A stretch of DNA of 64,000 nt from Candidatus Poribacteria bacterium (GCA_965208635.1 OZ242349.1:4925696-4989695), one strand, 5' to 3'; numbered from the stretch's first letter, positions 3,575-14,957 are shown. The notes: generated from the sequence alone by a model not told the origin. Made by a program: numbers and translations.

Positions 3575-6500
3575 ATGTTAAATAAAAACACATCCCTAAA
3601 ATCTGGTATCCGAGATAACCTCCTACGTGAAACAGTCCACGATTTTCTACAACAAGAAATTAAGAACGGTTCCGCACTCTCCATCGTCTCCGCCTACTTC
3701 ACCATTTATGCCTACGAAAAGATGCAACACTCCCTGGATAAAATAGAGGAACTCCGTTTTCTTTTTGGGGACCCTGATTTTGTCAAACGTATGGATCCGA
3801 ATAACACAGATACAAAAGCGTTTGATATGACGGATACAGGTCTACAACTCAACCAGCAACTCCGACAGAAACCGATTGCCAAAGCGTGTGCCGAATGGAT
3901 AAACGAGAAGGTAGAAATCCGTACGACCCGCGAATCTAATCTGATACACGGGAAAATGTACCACATCACCAATAACGGCGTTGACAAAGCAATTCTGGGT
4001 AGCTCCAACTTTACGGTGCGCGGACTCGGACTCAGTTCAAATAACAGCAACATTGAACTGAATCTTGAAGTGGATAGCGACCGAGACCGAACCGACCTCA
4101 AGGCGTGGTTTGATGAACTCTGGAATAACGATCAACTCGTTGAAGATGTGAAAAATAAAGTCCTCGCAAAACTGAAGCAGATAGGGCAAGATCACCCACC
4201 AGAACTCGTCTATTACAAAACCCTATACGAACTTTTCCGTGAAGAAATTGAGACCCGACAGACAAACGAACAGACCCTTGAGGATATACATCTATACGAC
4301 ACAAAAATTTGGGGCAAGTTATACGATTTTCAAAAAGAGGGCGCGAAAAGTGTTATTGCTCGGCTGCTGCGACACAACGGTTGTATTTTGGCGGATAGCG
4401 TCGGATTAGGAAAAACATACACTGCACTCGCCGTCATCAAGTTTTTTGAATTGCGAAACGAACGTGTCCTTGTTCTCTGCCCGAAAAAACTCCGCGAAAA
4501 TTGGGCACGCTACCCGGCACATAACTCACAAGCATCCAATGAGTTCCTCGATGATAAGTTCGGATACACCTTACTCTCGCACACCGACCTATCCAGATAC
4601 AGTGGTGATTCTGGCGGTGTCAATCTATCAGATTTCAATTGGCAGAATTTTGACCTGATTGTTATTGACGAATCCCACAACTTCCGAAATGACACCAAAC
4701 CCCGTGAGGACAAAGATGGCAGCTTCCGTCATAGCCGTTATTCCCGCCTATTAGAGGAGGTCATCAAAGAAGGCACAAAAACCAAAGTGTTGATGCTCTC
4801 CGCGACGCCCGTGAATACTTCACTCACTGACCTCCGCAATCAGATATATCTCATGACAGAAAAACGTGAGGATGTCTTTAGAAACAGTTTGGGGGTTAGC
4901 AATATCCGCACTTTAATACGACAGGCGCAAAAAGCCTTCAAGACGTGGGAAGAGAACACCACCAGAGATGGCACAAGAGATAAAACAGAATTATTTAATA
5001 CGTTAGGGGTAGAATTTTTTCAACTCCTCGGCGGCGTTTCTATTGCGCGTTCCCGAAGGCATATCATAAAATACTATGCCGAAGAAATAAAAAAAATTGG
5101 TGAATTCCCTACACAACTCGATCCAGTCAATTGCCATCCACCTACCGATCTGTCAGGCGAACTTTCATATAAAGTGTTGGCGGATCAGATTGGTGATTTC
5201 GAGTTGTCCATCTATAGACCCTCCAGTTACGTTGTAGATGAAACAGCAAAACAGCGGTTAGCAGATGAAAAACAGAAATTCCGTTTCAATCAGGAGGATC
5301 GTGAGAAATTCCTTATCGGTATGATGCAGACCAATTTCCTCAAACGGCTGGAAAGTTCTGCTTACTCCCTTTCCAAAACGCTTGAACGCACCATCAACAA
5401 ACACGATGAAATGCTGGAGAAGATTGACCGCTTCCAGAAAAACCAAAATATAGCAGACGCAGGCGCCGATGTCCTTCCCGATGATGATGAAGACGATGAG
5501 GAATTTTTAATCAATCGTGCCAGAAATCCCTACCATCTAAAAGAATTGGATTGCACCCGCTGGAAACAGGACATCAACCAAGATAAACAGACATTAACCG
5601 CTGTGTTGGAAAAAGTGAAATCCATCACATCAGAACGGGATGGAAAACTGAAAGAGATTAAAAAACACATCCGAGATAAGGTGCTAAATGCAACAAAAGA
5701 TAAGGACGGAAACCCCAATCGCAAACTGCTCATCTTTACCACCTTCAAGGATACGGCAGAATATCTCTATGATCACTTGTCTGAACTCATATCGGAATTA
5801 GGGCTGAATATGGCACTCGTTTCTGGAGATATGACGCGAACGACCTGCGGAGAAAATAAATTCAACGATATTCTTACGAACTTTGCCCCCCGCGCAAGAG
5901 GACGTTCTGAGGACATCAGCGACAACATAGACCTGATGATTGCGACAGACTGTATCTCAGAAGGGCAAAACCTTCAGGACTGCGATACCGTTCTAAACTA
6001 CGATATACACTGGAATCCCGTCCGTATTATTCAACGGTTCGGGCGGATTGATAGGATCGGTAGCAATAATGTCTCAGTCAAGATGATTAACTATTGGCCC
6101 ACAGAAGATATGGAGGTCTATCTCCGTCTACGAAATCGCGTTGAATCCCGAATGGCACTCGCCGATGCCACCGCAAGTGGTGATGACGACCCGTTGAATG
6201 AATGGGCTTACGAACAGGCACAGATGGAACTCAACTTCCGGGACAAGCAGTTGGAGCGGCTCCGCGAAGAGGTACTCGATCTGGATGACCTCTCTGACGG
6301 TGTAGTAATGAGCGACTTTACATTAGATTATTTCTTTGCGCAACTCCTGAAGTATCTCGAAAGAAACAGAGCAAAACTTGAGGCAACATCAGACGGTGCT
6401 TATGCCGTTACCAATAACGAAAACAATCCCTCGGAAAACGGTGTCATCTTCTTTCTCCAACAGACCAACGCCAGCACAAATAAACAGGAAAAAACCGCCA

Positions 6501-6853
6501 GTCCCATCCACCCTTACTACGCCGTTTACATCCGAGACAGTGGGGATATCCGTTACGGGTGTATCAATGCGAAACAGGTGTTGGATCTATTTGAGACATC
6601 TGCCGTTGGGAAAGAGGACGCAATAGATGATTTATGTCTCTGGTTTGACCAAGAGACGGAATACGGCGATAACATGACACATTACAACAAACTTTTAGAC
6701 GCCGTCATTTCGCATATCACACGGTCACATACGAAGACACAAAGCCAAATTTTGAAGAGTGGGAGTCCTCGCGACGCAAAACTGACACCCGCATCCAAAG
6801 CCCCTAAAGACACTGGCGATTTCAAGTTGGTGACATGGCTGATTATCACATGA
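3575..6853 (+). CDS. Fused PLD-family nuclease domain (single HKD motif) plus SNF2-family DEAH-box helicase
   Basis: HGKMYHITNNGVDKAILGSSNFT (HxK...GSxN PLD signature) near residue 125. Helicase motifs: I DSVGLGKT, II DESH, III LSATP, C-terminal helicase domain with QRFGRIDRIG (motif VI). 1092 aa, ATG start. Confidence 0.8.
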   Translation: MLNKNTSLKSGIRDNLLRETVHDFLQQEIKNGSALSIVSAYFTIYAYEKMQHSLDKIEELRFLFGDPDFVKRMDPNNTDTKAFDMTDTGLQLNQQLRQKPIAKACAEWINEKVEIRTTRESNLIHGKMYHITNNGVDKAILGSSNFTVRGLGLSSNNSNIELNLEVDSDRDRTDLKAWFDELWNNDQLVEDVKNKVLAKLKQIGQDHPPELVYYKTLYELFREEIETRQTNEQTLEDIHLYDTKIWGKLYDFQKEGAKSVIARLLRHNGCILADSVGLGKTYTALAVIKFFELRNERVLVLCPKKLRENWARYPAHNSQASNEFLDDKFGYTLLSHTDLSRYSGDSGGVNLSDFNWQNFDLIVIDESHNFRNDTKPREDKDGSFRHSRYSRLLEEVIKEGTKTKVLMLSATPVNTSLTDLRNQIYLMTEKREDVFRNSLGVSNIRTLIRQAQKAFKTWEENTTRDGTRDKTELFNTLGVEFFQLLGGVSIARSRRHIIKYYAEEIKKIGEFPTQLDPVNCHPPTDLSGELSYKVLADQIGDFELSIYRPSSYVVDETAKQRLADEKQKFRFNQEDREKFLIGMMQTNFLKRLESSAYSLSKTLERTINKHDEMLEKIDRFQKNQNIADAGADVLPDDDEDDEEFLINRARNPYHLKELDCTRWKQDINQDKQTLTAVLEKVKSITSERDGKLKEIKKHIRDKVLNATKDKDGNPNRKLLIFTTFKDTAEYLYDHLSELISELGLNMALVSGDMTRTTCGENKFNDILTNFAPRARGRSEDISDNIDLMIATDCISEGQNLQDCDTVLNYDIHWNPVRIIQRFGRIDRIGSNNVSVKMINYWPTEDMEVYLRLRNRVESRMALADATASGDDDPLNEWAYEQAQMELNFRDKQLERLREEVLDLDDLSDGVVMSDFTLDYFFAQLLKYLERNRAKLEATSDGAYAVTNNENNPSENGVIFFLQQTNASTNKQEKTASPIHPYYAVYIRDSGDIRYGCINAKQVLDLFETSAVGKEDAIDDLCLWFDQETEYGDNMTHYNKLLDAVISHITRSHTKTQSQILKSGSPRDAKLTPASKAPKDTGDFKLVTWLIIT

Positions 6854-6864
6854 TTAACCCGTCC

Positions 6865-6891
6865 CCGGTAGGTGCGGTTTTTAACCGCACT
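6865..6891. repeat. REP-like hairpin, copy 2 (GGTGCGGTT ttt AACCGCAC), 12 nt after the helicase stop
   Basis: Read directly; it may also act as a transcript 3' stem-loop, but there is no T-tract. Confidence 0.5.
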
Positions 6892-6928
6892 ATAGGTGTC
6901 AATTTAAGAAAAATTGCATCATGGCATC

Positions 6929-7169
6929 GTAGGTTGGGTTGAACGGGGAATACCAGAGTCCAGTGAATTGAAAGAAACAGTACGCCTTCTCTATACACCT
7001 TCCATTTCAGAGATATGGAGTGAAACCCAACGTCTTTGCGGTTCCCGAAACGCTGCGGGTATGAAGTTGGGTTTCACTCTGTTCTTGGGTATATCCGAGG
7101 CTGTGTTGGATTTCAGGGATATTTGGAACATCGGCATCTGCCTTCTAAGTTCCGTTCAACCCAACCTAC
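6929..7169. mobile_element. MITE-like element (~241 bp) with terminal inverted repeats GTAGGTTGGGTTGAACG / CGTTCAACCCAACCTAC and an internal inverted pair GTGAAACCCAACG / GTTGGGTTTCAC; copy 1 of 2
   Basis: Perfect 16-17 bp terminal inverted repeats; a homologous copy sits at 14726-14957 with shared internal blocks. It lies between the helicase and methyltransferase genes and has no coding potential (ORF 6914..7177 is spurious). Confidence 0.55.
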
Positions 7170-7261
7170 AGTACTAAATTGACACCTATGGTGCAGAAAA
7201 TAATAACATCGGGCGGATAAAGCCCTCCAAAAAGAGGAGTCTGTTATAGGAACACAAAATT

Positions 7262-10200
7262 ATGAACAAAGAAGCAATCAAAGCCGCACTATCCGCAATA
7301 CCGACCGGTGACTTTTTAGAAAAGTCAAAAGACCTGCTCGGCACAATAGGCTACCGCAGTGAACTCACCCTTGAACTTTCCGGCACCGTCCACGACTTTT
7401 TTGACGAATTTCCACCACTCAACCCGAACACCAAAACCGAACAGGAATTCCGAAAACACGCTGAATCCGTGCAACTCGTGTTCCAATTCACAAGCGACGA
7501 AATCGCTGATGATCCACAGGGAACACTTTTTGAATCCGCTTCCTTCGACAAAGGAAACATAAAAAGTTTCCTGTTCTGTGCAGTCGAGCTAAAAGACAAC
7601 AACTATTCCCGCACCAAATACGCCGAGTTCACACGAGAAATCAACAAACGTCTGTTCGCACCCACTGTGATTTTATTTCGCGCCGGTAATCATCTGACAG
7701 TTGCATTTGCCGATCGCCGCCCAGACAAAACCGACGAGGACCGCGATGTGCTCGGACAGGTTACCCTCATCAAAGACATCCGTCTCCACAACCCACACCG
7801 CGCACATTTGGACATCCTCTCTGAACTCTCACTTGAAGCGTGCGTCAAGTGGATAGATGAAAAACAAAAACCGAAAAACTTCGACGGTCTACTGGGGGCA
7901 TGGCTCGCCAAACTGGACACCGAAGAACTCAACAAACAGTTCTATCGAAAGCTGTTCGCGTGGTACGAATGGGCAAGAAAAGAAGCAACGTTCCCGACAG
8001 ACGAAAACCGAATCATAGAACCGGAGGAGCATGTAATACGCCTCATCACACGTCTACTCTTCATCTGGTTTATTAAAGAAAAAGGGTTGGTGGCAGATGC
8101 GTTATTCAACAAATCGCAAATCCAAGACCTACTGGCAGAAGACGATTTTGATACCGGAGATTCCTACTATCGCGCCGTGCTACAGAACCTCTTTTTCGCC
8201 ACATTGAACACCGAAATAGACAAACGTAAGTTTAGCACCGTTGGCTACGCCACAAATCGTGATTTCTCGCGTTACCGCTATAAAGCTCAGATGCCTGACC
8301 CCGATAAACTCTTAGAACTGTTTGACCAAACCCCCTTCATCAACGGTGGATTGTTCGATTGTCTGGATAGTTGGGAAGCGACGGGTCAAGAGAGTTACCG
8401 AATCGACTGCTTTTCTGATAATCAGTACCATAAGTTGTCCATCCCCAACCGTCTCTTTTTTCATATAGAGCAAGGATTGATTCCGTTACTTGAGCATTAC
8501 AAATTCACCGTCGAGGAGAACACACCGATAGAGCAAGAGGTGGCATTGGACCCAGAACTACTCGGCAGAGTCTTTGAAAACCTACTTGCTGCCTACAACC
8601 CGGAAACCGGTGCGACGGTGCGAAAACAGACCGGATCCTACTACACCCCACGTGCTATCGTCGATTATATGGTGGAAGAAGCATTGGTCGCCACGTTATC
8701 CCAAAAATGCGATCCAACCGATGGCGACGCGCAACTCTGGAACGAACGGCTACGCTATCTTCTCGACTATGCCCAAGCCTTTGATGATGCCAACGAATGG
8801 TTCGATGATGCTGAAAAAGATGCCGTTGTCCGAGTAATTTCCGAACTCAAGATATTGGATCCCGCAGTGGGTTCCGGTGCATTTCCTATGGGGATGTTGC
8901 ACAAATTAACCCTCGCATTACGCCGACTTGACCCAGACAACACCCGCTGGGAAAAGTTACAGAAGGAACGCGCGCTCCAACGAGCAGAAATAGCGTTTGA
9001 TACACAAGACGACCCAACGCGGCGTGAAGAACTCATCGAAATCGACGAGACTTTCAAACGCTATCGAGACTCAGACTTCGGACGAAAGTTGTATCTCATC
9101 CAAAATAGTATTTTCGGCATAGACATCCAACCCGTGGCGTGCCAGATCGCCAAACTCCGCTTTTTCATATCCCTTGCCATTGAGCAGGAACCCGAGCAGG
9201 ATACACAGAACTTCGGCATCAAACCGTTGCCAAACTTGGAGACGCGCTTTATCGCGGCAAACACACTGATAGGACTCACAGCACAACGGATGCTGACAAG
9301 TAACACCGCGCGAGATTTGGAACGCGAACTGGGTGACAATCGCGAGCGGCATTTTCATGCGACCACCCGTCAACGCAAACGTGAATATCAGCGAAAGGAC
9401 GAGCAACTGCGATCCGAATTGGCAGCGGAGCTAAAAAGCATGGGCACCCCAGCAGATGATGCCGAAAAAATTGCAAAATGGGATCCGTATGACCAGAATG
9501 CCACCGCCGATTGGTTTGATCCTGAATGGATGTTCGGAGTCATAGATGGATTTGATGTGGTGATTGGCAATCCACCCTACATTAGTCATGATAAAATCCC
9601 AAAACAACTTAAAGCCCAAATCAAGAATCATTACCAATCATACGAGCCATTTGCAGACGTATACTGTTATTTTATTGAAAAAACCTTAGAACTACAGAGT
9701 AAGAGGAGCATTCTTAGTTTCATTACCTCAAATTCGTATTTAAGAGCAGAATATGGAGCACCAACCCGCCGCCTATTGCTAAGTAAAAACATACTACTTA
9801 GAATGTTAAATATTGAGGACTCACAGGTCTTCGAGAGTGCAATTGTTAACGTCGCGATAATTGTGTCTCGTACACCGACCAATTCCACTGATGATTCCTG
9901 CCTTGTTGTTAATTCCCCATTTTCAGGTAATAGTTTCGCCGATTTTGTGAAAATCAATGGCTTTAACTATCCTCAATCATACTTTAACTCAAAGTCATGG
10001 AATCTCGCAGAACCGCAGCTGATTGAACTTCAAAAGAAACTGGAATTATCAGGAAAAACTCTTAAAGAGTTTCAGACGAAAATTAGACTTGGTATTGCTA
10101 CTGGTAGCAACGAAGCTTTTCTCATAAATGAAGATCAAAAACGGGAATTTTATGAGAAAAATCCTGTCAATGCTGAAATCATAAAACCTATTTTGAGGGG

Positions 10201-10813
10201 ACGGGACATTTCACGCTACAGTTACAACCTACCCGGGCAGTATATTCTACTCACCAAAAATGGAGTTAATGTAGAAAGAGATTACCCTGATATACATGAA
10301 CATCTAAAGTCGTTCGGGGATAAGTTCAGAAATCGTGGAGCACAGGGACAACATTGGACTAATTTAAGAGCTTGTTCATTCTATGACGACTTCAAAAAGG
10401 AAAAAATCGTGTGGATCGAATTGTCAGATTTGGGACGATTCGCACTTTGTAATGAGGAAATCTATCTACTCAACTCGGCGTACTTTTTATTACCACCTTT
10501 GGGTATAGACTCAAAATTCCTTCTTGGCATCCTAAATTCAAGCACAATTCGCTTTTACCTGAATCTTGTCGCAGAAACAAGCGGAATGGGAACAAGCCGT
10601 TGGATCAACAATTATGTGAAAGAATTCCCAATACCAATAGTTGCTTATGAACAACAAACTGAAATCATTGAACACGTCGATCAACTTCTTGCGATCAAGC
10701 GCGCTGACTCGGATGCGGACACTTCCAATCTTGAAAATGAGATTGACAAACTGGTATACGCCTTATACGACCTAACCGACGATGAGATTGCGATTGTGGA
10801 GGGAAAAGAATGA
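7262..10813 (+). CDS. Gamma-class N6-adenine DNA methyltransferase, large Type IIG / PglX-like architecture with a possible N-terminal PD-(D/E)xK region and a C-terminal target-recognition region
   Basis: Motif I LDPAVGSGAFPMGML near residue 531, then motif IV VIGNPPYISHD near residue 769. The I-then-IV order defines the gamma class. About 530 aa precede motif I, with a possible D-x12-ELK (SFDKG...AVELK). A 414-aa C-terminal region is markedly AT-rich. 1183 aa. Confidence 0.8.
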   Translation: MNKEAIKAALSAIPTGDFLEKSKDLLGTIGYRSELTLELSGTVHDFFDEFPPLNPNTKTEQEFRKHAESVQLVFQFTSDEIADDPQGTLFESASFDKGNIKSFLFCAVELKDNNYSRTKYAEFTREINKRLFAPTVILFRAGNHLTVAFADRRPDKTDEDRDVLGQVTLIKDIRLHNPHRAHLDILSELSLEACVKWIDEKQKPKNFDGLLGAWLAKLDTEELNKQFYRKLFAWYEWARKEATFPTDENRIIEPEEHVIRLITRLLFIWFIKEKGLVADALFNKSQIQDLLAEDDFDTGDSYYRAVLQNLFFATLNTEIDKRKFSTVGYATNRDFSRYRYKAQMPDPDKLLELFDQTPFINGGLFDCLDSWEATGQESYRIDCFSDNQYHKLSIPNRLFFHIEQGLIPLLEHYKFTVEENTPIEQEVALDPELLGRVFENLLAAYNPETGATVRKQTGSYYTPRAIVDYMVEEALVATLSQKCDPTDGDAQLWNERLRYLLDYAQAFDDANEWFDDAEKDAVVRVISELKILDPAVGSGAFPMGMLHKLTLALRRLDPDNTRWEKLQKERALQRAEIAFDTQDDPTRREELIEIDETFKRYRDSDFGRKLYLIQNSIFGIDIQPVACQIAKLRFFISLAIEQEPEQDTQNFGIKPLPNLETRFIAANTLIGLTAQRMLTSNTARDLERELGDNRERHFHATTRQRKREYQRKDEQLRSELAAELKSMGTPADDAEKIAKWDPYDQNATADWFDPEWMFGVIDGFDVVIGNPPYISHDKIPKQLKAQIKNHYQSYEPFADVYCYFIEKTLELQSKRSILSFITSNSYLRAEYGAPTRRLLLSKNILLRMLNIEDSQVFESAIVNVAIIVSRTPTNSTDDSCLVVNSPFSGNSFADFVKINGFNYPQSYFNSKSWNLAEPQLIELQKKLELSGKTLKEFQTKIRLGIATGSNEAFLINEDQKREFYEKNPVNAEIIKPILRGRDISRYSYNLPGQYILLTKNGVNVERDYPDIHEHLKSFGDKFRNRGAQGQHWTNLRACSFYDDFKKEKIVWIELSDLGRFALCNEEIYLLNSAYFLLPPLGIDSKFLLGILNSSTIRFYLNLVAETSGMGTSRWINNYVKEFPIPIVAYEQQTEIIEHVDQLLAIKRADSDADTSNLENEIDKLVYALYDLTDDEIAIVEGKE

Positions 10814-11235
10814 ATACAGGACTAAAGATTTTCATTACCTATGCCCATAAAAATTCAGAAGCAAAGGACGAATTGATAACCAGCCTTGCCGTCCTGAAGC
10901 AAAACGGATTAATAGATGTCTGGCACGACAACGAAATTCTACCTGGAGACAAATGGCGAGATGAAATTTTCAACAACCTTGCTGATTCGGACATTCTACT
11001 CTACCTTACCTGTCGGTATAGTCTTGCCTCTGAAAATTGCAATAAAGAATTAACTGCTGCGTTAAATCCAAATATAAGAGTGATTCCGATTATCCTTGAA
11101 CATTGCGATTGGCTAAATCACCAACTTAGCGATTTTCAAGCTCTACCGGATAAAGGTAAACCTATTAACGAGTGGCAACCTGAGAGCAAAGGGTGGTTAA
11201 ATGTACTGCCATCGGAAATTTGGACCACTCTCTAA
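10810..11235 (+). CDS. TIR-domain protein, start overlapping the methyltransferase stop (ATGA); 3' end replaced by IS-derived sequence
   Basis: IFITYAHKNSEAKDEL (TIR box 1, F-I/V-S/T-Y/H...D). ...DSDILLYLTCRYSLASENCNKELTAAL matches the S-x-W/N-C-x-x-E-L motif that carries the catalytic Glu of TIR NADases. The last 10 codons (VLPSEIWTTL*) come from the IS left end starting at 11202, so the native C-terminus is lost. Confidence 0.6.
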   Translation: MNTGLKIFITYAHKNSEAKDELITSLAVLKQNGLIDVWHDNEILPGDKWRDEIFNNLADSDILLYLTCRYSLASENCNKELTAALNPNIRVIPIILEHCDWLNHQLSDFQALPDKGKPINEWQPESKGWLNVLPSEIWTTL

Positions 11236-11360
11236 ACCAAGATTGTGATACAATAACAATCTATTTGAAAGGAGCATTCCGATGGCGAAACGCAGAAGAT
11301 TTACCCCCGAATTTAAAGCAGAAGTTGTGCTGGAGGCACTTCGCGGTGAAACTTCCCAAG
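11202..11360 (+). mobile_element. Partial (left-end, 159 bp) copy of the same IS3-family element in inverted orientation relative to the full copy; contains IRL and the first 26 codons of orfA
   Basis: Perfect reverse-complement identity of 11202-11360 to 12363-12521. Confidence 0.7.
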
Positions 11361-12170
11361 AGGTGTCAGATACCCTAACGCCGAATGCAGGCGTTTGAGA
11401 TTATACACCTGTGTGATAAAATGACCGATGCTTTGTCGAGCCTCGGTAATATCTTGATAATCATTGAGGTGGACTTCTTCTTCCTTGAGCGTTCGGATCA
11501 ATCTTTCAGCGTATCCATTCTCCCAAGGACACCCGCGGCGAGCTACCGAAATCTCAACACCGTATGCTTGGAGTGTTGCGATATACGCCTTTGAAAGATA
11601 CTGCACGCCTTGATCGGAATGATGAATCTCCGGAATCCTGTCGTGTAAAGCTTGCTCTAAGGGTTTCAAAGTCAGAGTTTGCGTCAAGTCTTGACTGAGG
11701 TTCCATCCTCGAATCATACGTGTGAAGACATCCATGAGCAGCGCGACATAGATGAAGCGTCTGTTGAGGCGGACGTAGGTGATATCGCCGACCCAGACTT
11801 GATCCTGTCGGGAGATCTCAAGCGTCTGTATTCTATTGACCCACGGGTGTGAACCTTCAAGGGACCTCGTGGTTTGACAGACCCGTTTCACCGAGACCGA
11901 GAGGTTATCTTCTTTCATCAACCGAGCGACGCGTCGATACCCAACAGGGTGTCCTTGATTCACCAACAGTTTGGTGATACGTCGATACCCGTAGGTGGGA
12001 TACCGGGCAGCTAACTGCTGTATGTCTGATCGCAGGACTTCTTCAGACGGGTCGCTTTTGGGGTGATAATAGAGCGTGCTCTTGTTGAAACCCAGCACCT
12101 CGCAAATCAGTCGAACCGAATACCTCGTCCGCAACTCCTCAACGATGCGTCGCTGTTGAGACGGGGTCAA
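11313..12170 (-). CDS. IS3-family transposase OrfB (DDE integrase domain); the reading frame runs about 48 nt past the inferred IS end into the inverted partial copy
   Basis: WVGDITYV...HSDQGVQY...NGYAE catalytic-triad context; C-terminal LHSALGYLTP. Confidence 0.75.
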   Translation of the reverse strand: MTPSQQRRIVEELRTRYSVRLICEVLGFNKSTLYYHPKSDPSEEVLRSDIQQLAARYPTYGYRRITKLLVNQGHPVGYRRVARLMKEDNLSVSVKRVCQTTRSLEGSHPWVNRIQTLEISRQDQVWVGDITYVRLNRRFIYVALLMDVFTRMIRGWNLSQDLTQTLTLKPLEQALHDRIPEIHHSDQGVQYLSKAYIATLQAYGVEISVARRGCPWENGYAERLIRTLKEEEVHLNDYQDITEARQSIGHFITQVYNLKRLHSALGYLTPLGKFHREVPPAQLLL

Positions 12171-12521
12171 TCCAACAATGTCGATGCTTTTTTTTGAATC
12201 TCCATCGCCAGGGTCAACCGTCCAACGAGTTGCTCAAGTTGAGCCACCCGTTCTACGGACTCGCTCGACTGCTTATCCGTAGCGTCAAAGAGCGTCGCTA
12301 TATTTTCAACGACTTGCTGCTTCCACTTTGAGACTTGGTCTGCACTTAGATTATGGTGCCGACACAATTCCGCTTGGGAAGTTTCACCGCGAAGTGCCTC
12401 CAGCACAACTTCTGCTTTAAATTCGGGGGTAAATCTTCTGCGTTTCGCCATCGGAATGCTCCTTTCAAATAGATTGTTATTGTATCACAATCTTGGTTTA
12501 GAGAGTGGTCCAAATTTCCGA
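11364..12521 (-). mobile_element. IS3-family insertion sequence (orfA plus orfB with an A8G -1 frameshift site), about 1.16 kb; left terminus TGTACTGCCATCGG... at 12521
   Basis: OrfA is an HTH/leucine-zipper protein (MAKRRRFTPEFKAEVV...). OrfB is a DDE transposase ending with the ...HSALGYLTP motif typical of IS3 OrfB. Slippery AAAAAAAAG lies at the orfA/orfB overlap (+ strand 12186-12196 TTTTTTTT). The right boundary is inferred from where the inverted duplicate ends and is uncertain by a few nt. Confidence 0.75.
12167..12451 (-). CDS. IS3-family transposase OrfA (HTH DNA-binding)
   Basis: 94 aa, MAKRRRFTPEFKAEVVLEAL... typical IS3 OrfA; overlaps orfB at the A8G slippery site. Confidence 0.8.
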   Translation of the reverse strand: MAKRRRFTPEFKAEVVLEALRGETSQAELCRHHNLSADQVSKWKQQVVENIATLFDATDKQSSESVERVAQLEQLVGRLTLAMEIQKKASTLLD

Positions 12522-12938
12522 TGGCAGTACACGGATTGATCGTTGTTGTCAAGTGAAAAACCGCCAAGTCGGGTGACAAGACGGTTTTCTTGACAATCCG
12601 TATACTTTGATGTTATCAAAGCATCAGCGGCGGATGCGTCGCGGATCGCTCACCTTGAGCAGCTCGTTGGGTGTCTAACAGTCGCCTTAGACATTGAAAA
12701 AAAAGCCGCGAAGTGGTTGAACTAACGGCATCAAAGAAACGAGAAATGGTGGAAAAAGTGCACTTAGTAAGTGGCTTACTTCTTTTTAAACTCTCATACT
12801 ATCCTTGATAAACTTGGCAAACATATCTCTACTCCGATAGTTATATTTATAGCACGCTTCAGCGAGATATAGAGGCGTGTATCCTGTTGAGTAGTGGTGG
12901 TGTGAACCATACCATGCCCGTTTGACGAAAGACCTATC

Positions 12939-14251: not shown

Positions 14252-14725
14252 CAGTAAAGTGATGTATCGCCGGTTTGCAAAATGTTGCACTTTCCGCCAA
14301 ATTATTTTTTTCGCACAGAAAAATCGAATAAAAAAACGCGCCTAAACCCACACACGCATTGGATTCTCAGACAATTTTAGCAAGTTATCCAAAATACAAA
14401 AAAAGTTACCAAATCGTAACTTTTTAGCAAATGAGTTAAAAATAAATTAACGTATGTTATCCATAAAGACTCATTGAAAACCGAGTCTGAAGTTTCAGAG
14501 TAAGCATTTCAGAAATCGCCTATCAAAACCACTCGAAACCCAGTCAGGGTCTATATTCACAACCTTTTTAAAATCCACCCTTCTTTAAATTTTACTCTGA
14601 ATACTCTGAAACTCGCCACATTTTCTTATCCCTATGTCTGAGCCGTGTCTCTGGGATCGCGATCCTATTGACTGCTAACTACTGAATGCTTCTGAAGGGT
14701 GTGTAAATATTTTGTCAAAATCCTG

Positions 14726-14957
14726 TAGGTTGGGTTGAACGAGGCCTGATTGAAGACCTCATAGCGGCGATGATTCTCAAACGCACAAAGCACCTGAACG
14801 CACCAGAATACAAGTGAAACCCAACGCCTTTTCACACCAGCACCGTTTGGGACGTTGGGTTTTGCTATCTCTATTTACACAGAACAGGTCATTGAAATAG
14901 CGGAGTTGCCGGGGGTAAACTCCAGTGTCTTGGTTTTTACCGCTCAACCCAACCTAC
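14726..14957. mobile_element. MITE-like element, copy 2 (same inverted termini as 6929-7169)
   Basis: GTAGGTTGGGTTGAACG ... GCTCAACCCAACCTAC; internal GTGAAACCCAACGCC / CGTTGGGTTTTGC blocks shared with copy 1. ORF 14855..15193 inside it is spurious. Confidence 0.55.

Follow-up and report, generated by a model that had tools for sequence, protein, structure and literature searches.

The window analysed here, a 64,000-nucleotide stretch of DNA from a Candidatus Poribacteria bacterium, carries two neighbouring genes, which we designate R and M, and we conclude that they represent an uncharacterised yet common two-gene ATP-dependent system of the restriction-modification (R-M) kind. R encodes a PLD nuclease domain joined to an SNF2 motor, and M an N6-adenine DNA methylase with its own target-recognition domain (TRD). 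We put the probability that the two form a two-gene, ATP-dependent R-M-type defence system at about 0.65. The PLD-SNF2 fusion in itself is a catalogued and very widespread protein family.

Architecture of R

ORF analysis gives R as an open reading frame on the plus strand that begins with ATG and encodes 1092 aa; because homologues align with it from residue 1 to residue 1092, both the start codon and the length are supported. Its features are as follows.

3575..6853, plus strand: R gene, 1092-aa PLD(HKD)-SNF2 motor-nuclease (ORF, Pfam, PADLOC)
3575..4144, plus strand: PLD nuclease domain with a single HKD, aa 1 to about 190
3947..4015, plus strand: catalytic motif H125-G-K127 ... G142-S-S-N145-F-T147 (invariant in 45 relatives)
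4049..4063, plus strand: N159-I-E161-L-N163, downstream of the catalytic motif
4145..4315, plus strand: helical linker from PLD to motor, aa about 191-247 (modelled helices, conserved residues)
4316..6154, plus strand: SNF2-family SF2 ATPase, aa 248-860, its two lobes separated by a long insertion (motifs, phmmer)
6155..6850, plus strand: C-terminal domain, aa 861-1092 (conserved in every relative)

In Pfam, PLDc_2 matches aa 93-183 (E 4.4e-9; score 36.7 bits, cutoff 27), and the RE_NgoFVII PLD domain matches at aa 100-184 (E 6.4e-7). These are followed by ResIII (aa 248-413), SNF2-rel_dom (aa 252-312, 39.4 bits against 24.9) and Helicase_C (aa 711-829, E 6.8e-15, 55.7 bits against 23.5). Motifs I, II (DExH), III and VI are present, the SNF2 motifs being intact as GLGKT at 277, DESH at 365, SATP at 409 and QRFGRIDRIG at 820, and with profiles above threshold R is a member of the SNF2 family; the top PDB sequence matches of the motor in phmmer are yeast Snf2, CHD1L, SMARCA5 and RapA. 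The best PADLOC match for the protein is the 'HKD+Snf2' profile (PDLC01075, 'C3a139, HKD+Snf2'), which covers aa 25-1057 at E 2.5e-109 and 365 bits. The ORF, Pfam and the motifs thus bear out an earlier sequence-only reading of this locus as one 1092-aa polypeptide in which a single-HKD PLD lies N-terminal to SNF2. The 230-aa C-terminal domain is present in every relative at 30-91% identity, gives no match in a Pfam search even at E 10, and could hold another activity. For BREX-related helicases, degenerate REase-like folds have been proposed (PMC12839542). The Pfam search of R found no modified-base reader such as SRA.

The PLD active site of R

Because HxK and GSxN each occur once within the first 200 aa of R, and Pfam gives one PLD domain protein-wide, we regard R as a single-HKD protein. 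In an alignment of 45 relatives at 42-62% identity, residues H125, G126, K127, G142, S143, S144, N145, T147, N159, E161 and N163 are invariant, and H125-G-K127 aligns with the HxK of BfiI and SauUSI. The equivalent of the HKD 'D' is T/A132 or N133 in the R family, as is the case for several members that are nucleases, and the corresponding residue of SauUSI is E (PMC7913695). Of 80 related loci, 79 retain the HxK..GSxN combination, and the remaining one (L020) has HGR.

A first AF2 model of R aa 1-246, made with a shallow alignment (76-98% identity), had a pLDDT of 37.7 and was discarded, and a deeper alignment was used instead. The N-terminal domain of R has the PLD alpha/beta fold, and a Foldseek search with the PLD-domain model finds SauUSI at E 7e-7. 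The linker is modelled with helices at 193-204, 209-220 and 222-237, and its residues P209, Y213, T216 and L217 are conserved in the 45-relative alignment. By motif, alignment and fold, the N-terminus of R is therefore confirmed as a single-HKD PLD nuclease domain of the Nuc/BfiI/SauUSI type, and the segment HGK...GSSNFT (aa 125-147), previously proposed to be PLD from the sequence, is indeed so.

The partner methylase M

Downstream of R lies the gene for M, with the following features.

7262..10813, plus strand: M gene, 1183-aa N6-adenine DNA methylase with TRD, Eco57I/MmeI type (Pfam, motifs)
7262..8011, plus strand: DUF4391-like N-terminal domain of M, aa 1-250 (sub-threshold Pfam)
8012..8551, plus strand: helical spacer of M, aa 251-430, weakly MmeI_hel-like (Pfam MmeI_hel E 0.01)
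9932..10810, plus strand: target-recognition domain of M, aa 891-1183, hypervariable (TaqI_C)

M matches Eco57I (1e-34), TaqI_C (1.2e-17), MmeI_Mtase (6.5e-7) and N6_Mtase in Pfam, and its methylase motifs are intact (motif I, DPAVGSGAF, at aa 533 and NPPY at aa 770); a gamma-class N6-adenine methylase and a TRD are present in one chain. We link the N-terminal domain to DUF4391 through gene context and through Pfam matches in 24 of 34 M-family members, all of them sub-threshold (best E 7.4e-7). The M of the window itself scores 18.7 bits against a cutoff of 29.9, and hhalign of the M N-domain profile with one standalone DUF4391 sequence returned a probability of 4%, a weak result that is uninformative alone. 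There is a D-x12-E-L-K string at aa 95-110 of the window M that looks like PD-ExK; a PD-ExK nuclease in the M N-terminus was rejected, as neither the E nor the K of ELK is conserved among 68 homologues and only L110 is, and a Pfam search of M gave no match to a nuclease family.

Variation in the TRD of M is uncoupled from that in R, the pattern expected if R-M systems swap specificities. In 48 of 79 loci the TRD comparison gave no match or a partial match only; at L001 R is at 93% and the TRD at 57% over 34% of its length, and at L010 and L011 R is at 57% and the TRD at 72%. The identity of the spacer of M tracks that of R (rho 0.73).

Distribution of the pair

Homologues of R fall into more than 120 clusters at 76-97% identity, and full-length relatives are present in at least 592 species genomes. 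A search for further PLD-SNF2 fusions and their partners, which had been suggested from the sequence, thus yields both: a homologue of M that includes the N-terminal domain is found in 77 of 82 loci, and in 75 it lies downstream of R on the same strand. The pairing spans Poribacteria, Chloroflexota, Cyanobacteria, Verrucomicrobiota, Proteobacteria, Bacteroidota, Planctomycetota and other phyla. Among 80 related loci we see no further conserved neighbour gene besides M, the recurrent extras being variable cargo. The gap between R and M has a median of 207 nt and is 200 nt or less in 36 loci; as it exceeds 200 nt in about half of the loci, often with inserted genes, co-transcription is not assured. 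Promoter and terminator scans of the window show no enrichment and are therefore silent on operon structure.

Fusions of HKD and SWI2/SNF2 in bacterial R-M systems were described by 2012 by Aravind and colleagues (PMC3417536), and Milman et al. (2023) noted a PLD(cd09178)+SNF CDS that directly precedes a Cj0031-like Type II R-M CDS (PMC9881135). With a PADLOC profile that runs end to end, these reports remove the novelty that had been implied for the fusion. Within the freely searchable literature, our search for a name for the exact two-gene system gave only the passing remark in PMC9881135, and we found no experimental study of the R-M family.

Mobile elements and neighbouring genes

Three further features lie between or beyond R and M.

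6878..7203, no strand assigned: MITE-like nested inverted repeat filling the R-M gap, outside the system (repeats, fold)
10810..11235, plus strand: TIR-domain ORF, 141 aa, the remaining 5' part of a TIR-TPR accessory gene (Pfam, PADLOC)
11202..12531, minus strand: IS3-family element with 162-nt terminal inverted repeats, interrupting the TIR-TPR gene (NCBIfam)

At the window locus the R-M gap is 408 nt and holds the MITE-like element, which is 326 nt long, has arms at 6878-6906/7175-7203 and 6929-6946/7152-7169 (at 100%), and folds with a dG of -140.8 kcal/mol (z -7.9). Because its inner arms have a second copy at 14725-14957, the intergenic structure is better read as a MITE; an Rfam scan of the whole window gave no match. 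The TIR ORF matches Pfam TIR_2 (7e-17) and a ThsB-like PADLOC profile (3.7e-25), and its aa 1-133 are 92% identical to a 637-aa TIR-TPR protein at a related locus (L002), the match stopping at nt 11208. The IS3 element (NCBIfam transpos_IS3, 5.9e-80) has arms at 11202-11363/12370-12531 that are 99% complementary. The neighbouring genes encode an SMP-30/gluconolactonase, a methyltransferase, a PIG-L deacetylase, IS3, a TPR protein and an oxidoreductase.

A sister clade with a dead PLD domain

A sister cassette, plasmid-borne in E. coli, Acinetobacter, Listeria, Bacillus, Vibrio and other genera, consists of SNF2, standalone DUF4391, Type III Mod and Type III Res genes in that order, the standalone DUF4391 gene coming after SNF2 in seven of seven plasmids. 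Its SNF2 protein is a full-length homologue of R (about 37% identity over aa 3-1091) that retains the PLD-like N-terminal domain and the C-terminal domain, and the HxK and GSxN residues are lost at all seven sister-clade loci inspected. The methylase of the cassette matches PADLOC MTase_III at 5e-170 and its second helicase REase_III at 1028 bits (E-value given as 0). The cassette thus differs from the R-M pair in that DUF4391 is a separate gene and Mod and Res are canonical Type III; DUF4391 is fused to M in the pair, whereas in the cassette it is always the next gene after SNF2. As this Type III-linked clade has lost the HKD residues, the view that PLD is the sole nuclease of the R-M pair is supported.

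Discussion

We propose that M, laid out as a DUF4391-like domain, a helical spacer, a gamma-class N6-adenine methylase and a variable TRD, would read a short DNA sequence and methylate it, so that the host genome is marked as self. R, with its single-HKD PLD nuclease, helical linker, SNF2 ATPase and C-terminal domain, would be the only nuclease of the pair. By analogy with SauUSI, BfiI and MtsD it is most likely a homodimer in which two PLD domains build one metal-independent active site. M probably recruits or activates R at unmethylated sites, likely through the DUF4391-like domain, as gene context suggests, and R may then spend ATP on moving along the DNA or on communication between sites before cutting the strands in turn. 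ATP-driven translocation by R we infer from the same analogues; contact between R and M through DUF4391, methylation of one strand and any dependence on site orientation are likewise put forward, in this case from gene context.

It is unlikely that M is instead a self-contained Type IIG/IIL enzyme (MmeI/Eco57I-like) with an N-terminal nuclease and that R is an independent defence, for example a Type IV-like one as SauUSI is. PADLOC does name M 'REase_MTase_IIG' at 1.3e-107, and the D-x12-E-L-K string of the window M resembles PD-ExK. However, the PADLOC match is confined to the methylase and TRD (aa 687-1175) and does not reach the N-terminus, which resembles DUF4391, the E and K of ELK being unconserved in the 68 homologues. 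The R-M pairing in 75 of 82 loci across many phyla argues against two independent systems, as does the lack in R of a modified-base reader such as SRA; the hallmark of Type IV, a built-in reader of this kind and no cognate methylase, is not what we see, since R is readerless and the methylase is a conserved neighbour. We give least weight to the idea that the PLD domain is not the effector that cuts DNA. On this view R would remodel or sense, a role that has been proposed for SNF2 proteins lacking a nuclease, and an associated effector, for example the TIR protein, would kill the cell by abortive infection through NAD+ depletion. The sister clade does show the same scaffold working with a dead PLD domain, and TIR or TIR-TPR genes follow M at several related loci, the TIR start overlapping the M stop in the window. 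Against this, the PLD catalytic residues are invariant in the R clade, a TIR gene occurs in only about 8 to 15 of the 82 loci, mostly in sponge-symbiont lineages, and in the window the TIR-TPR gene is broken by the IS while R and M are intact.

It appears very unlikely that the two genes are a remnant or a reduced version of some larger known system, such as DISARM class 1 (DrmD + DrmMI + DrmABC), MANTIS/Gao_RL or BREX type 3, with the remaining components lost or encoded elsewhere. There are partial PADLOC matches to DrmD (4e-35), BrxHI/BrxHII (1e-28), DrmMI (2e-20) and PglX (8e-22), 'HKD+Snf2' is the best PADLOC match for R, and on a B. cereus plasmid the sister-clade cassette directly follows drmA and a DUF1998 gene. 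Within 10 kb of the pair, however, we find no DrmA, DUF1998, DUF499, DUF3780, PglZ or BrxC-like gene, and no such family recurs among the neighbours in the 80 related loci. The NCBIfam scores are far below cutoff (on R, DrmD NF038317 at 144.7 bits against 610 and NF038318 at 106.9 against 950; PglX at 100 against 500 and phospholipD_antiphage at 158 against 1100), M is an Eco57I/MmeI-type methylase to which a DUF4391-like domain is fused, and there is no neighbour resembling the AAA+ loader that MtsC, the MANTIS methylase, needs.

Beyond the two-gene R-M reading, we suggest more tentatively, and on balance with some doubt, that the pair represents an unnamed, widespread and minimal class of ATP-dependent R-M system in which DUF4391 is a hitherto unrecognised adaptor, and that the dead-PLD SNF2-DUF4391 module is an add-on regulator of Type III systems. 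The pair would then in effect be a Type ISP enzyme separated into two parts and reconstructed around a PLD nuclease and an SNF2 motor, with DUF4391 plugging the methylase-TRD module into the SNF2 motor, and the dead-PLD module would sometimes be found next to DrmAB. If this is true, DUF4391 gains a function, and loss or gain of a nuclease links Type III, DISARM-like and PLD-SNF2 systems; the contrast between the R-M pair and the sister clade is a first functional hint for DUF4391. The fusion itself matters little, as the architecture is catalogued and SauUSI and MtsD have already shown how a dimer of this kind works with a single site. With two genes and no AAA+ loader, the R-M family is simpler than MANTIS, BREX or DISARM and could be a tractable model of how a methylase-TRD module licenses a PLD-motor nuclease, and the active-PLD and dead-PLD clades offer a ready-made comparative test of where the nuclease lies.

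Comparison with known systems

One of the closest parallels is MtsD of MANTIS (formerly Gao_RL / Gao_29, 'Type-2 BREX-related'), which like R has an N-terminal single-HKD PLD and an SF2 (Swi2/Snf2-type) ATPase, relies on an N6-adenine methylase partner for sequence specificity, and has a catalytic H122 comparable to H125 of R. By architecture and the 'HKD+Snf2' profile R may be MtsD-like, and the 365-bit score of that profile indicates that R would belong to a sibling family rather than being an orthologue. MANTIS also differs in needing four proteins (MtsABCD), among them the AAA+ loader MtsA (DUF499) and a small protein, MtsB; DUF499 AAA+ (MtsA) and DUF3780/DUF3870 (MtsB) are absent from the neighbourhood in the window and do not recur in the 80 loci. 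Restriction by MANTIS needs the MtsD ATPase, and cleavage by MtsD was not reconstituted in vitro (bioRxiv 10.64898/2026.09.23.753747).

SauUSI (Type IV, PDB 7CLG) is unlike R in being a single protein with its own SRA-type TRD that cuts methylated DNA and has no methylase partner, and its motor is related to Type I/ISP/III ATPases, not to SNF2 (PMC7913695). The expectation that a single HKD implies a dimeric active site holds for both of these proteins of the same architecture: SauUSI, which translocates, dimerises in the crystal through its PLD domains, the HxK site being pre-formed (PMC7913695), and MtsD is seen by cryo-EM as a dimer with one shared PLD site, constitutively (bioRxiv 10.64898/2026.09.23.753747). 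The further proposal from the sequence, that dimerisation or collision gates cleavage by assembling the site, fits less well, as the PLD dimer is constitutive in both solved relatives; for both, collision or partner contact has been proposed to activate the PLD site and not to build it (PMC7913695; bioRxiv 10.64898/2026.09.23.753747). Taken as a whole, the sequence-only reading is partly supported.

DISARM, the frame in which the fusion was originally placed, resembles the pair at class 1, where a PLD nuclease and an SNF2 protein are likewise used alongside an N6-adenine methylase of Eco57I-like type, but has in addition the DrmA helicase and DrmB (DUF1998), and its DrmC is separate where PLD is fused here. 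Neither DrmA nor DrmB is found at the window locus or in the 80 related loci, and with the DrmD score given above DISARM does not serve as a frame. 'Type I/ISP-like logic', by contrast, was a fair description, since what is conserved next to R is a TRD-bearing methylase. Type ISP (LlaGI/LlaBIII) and Type III (EcoP15I) enzymes likewise combine a nuclease with an SF2 motor and read an asymmetric site through a methylase-TRD. Type ISP enzymes, however, are single polypeptides whose nuclease is of the Mrr/PD-(D/E)xK kind, and Type III has a Res with a C-terminal PD-(D/E)xK nuclease and a beta-class Mod, whereas the R-M pair has a PLD nuclease, an SNF2 motor and a gamma-class methylase of the Eco57I/MmeI type. 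Functionally, the pair is thus similar to a Type ISP enzyme divided between two genes, or to a Type III enzyme whose Res has another nuclease and another motor.

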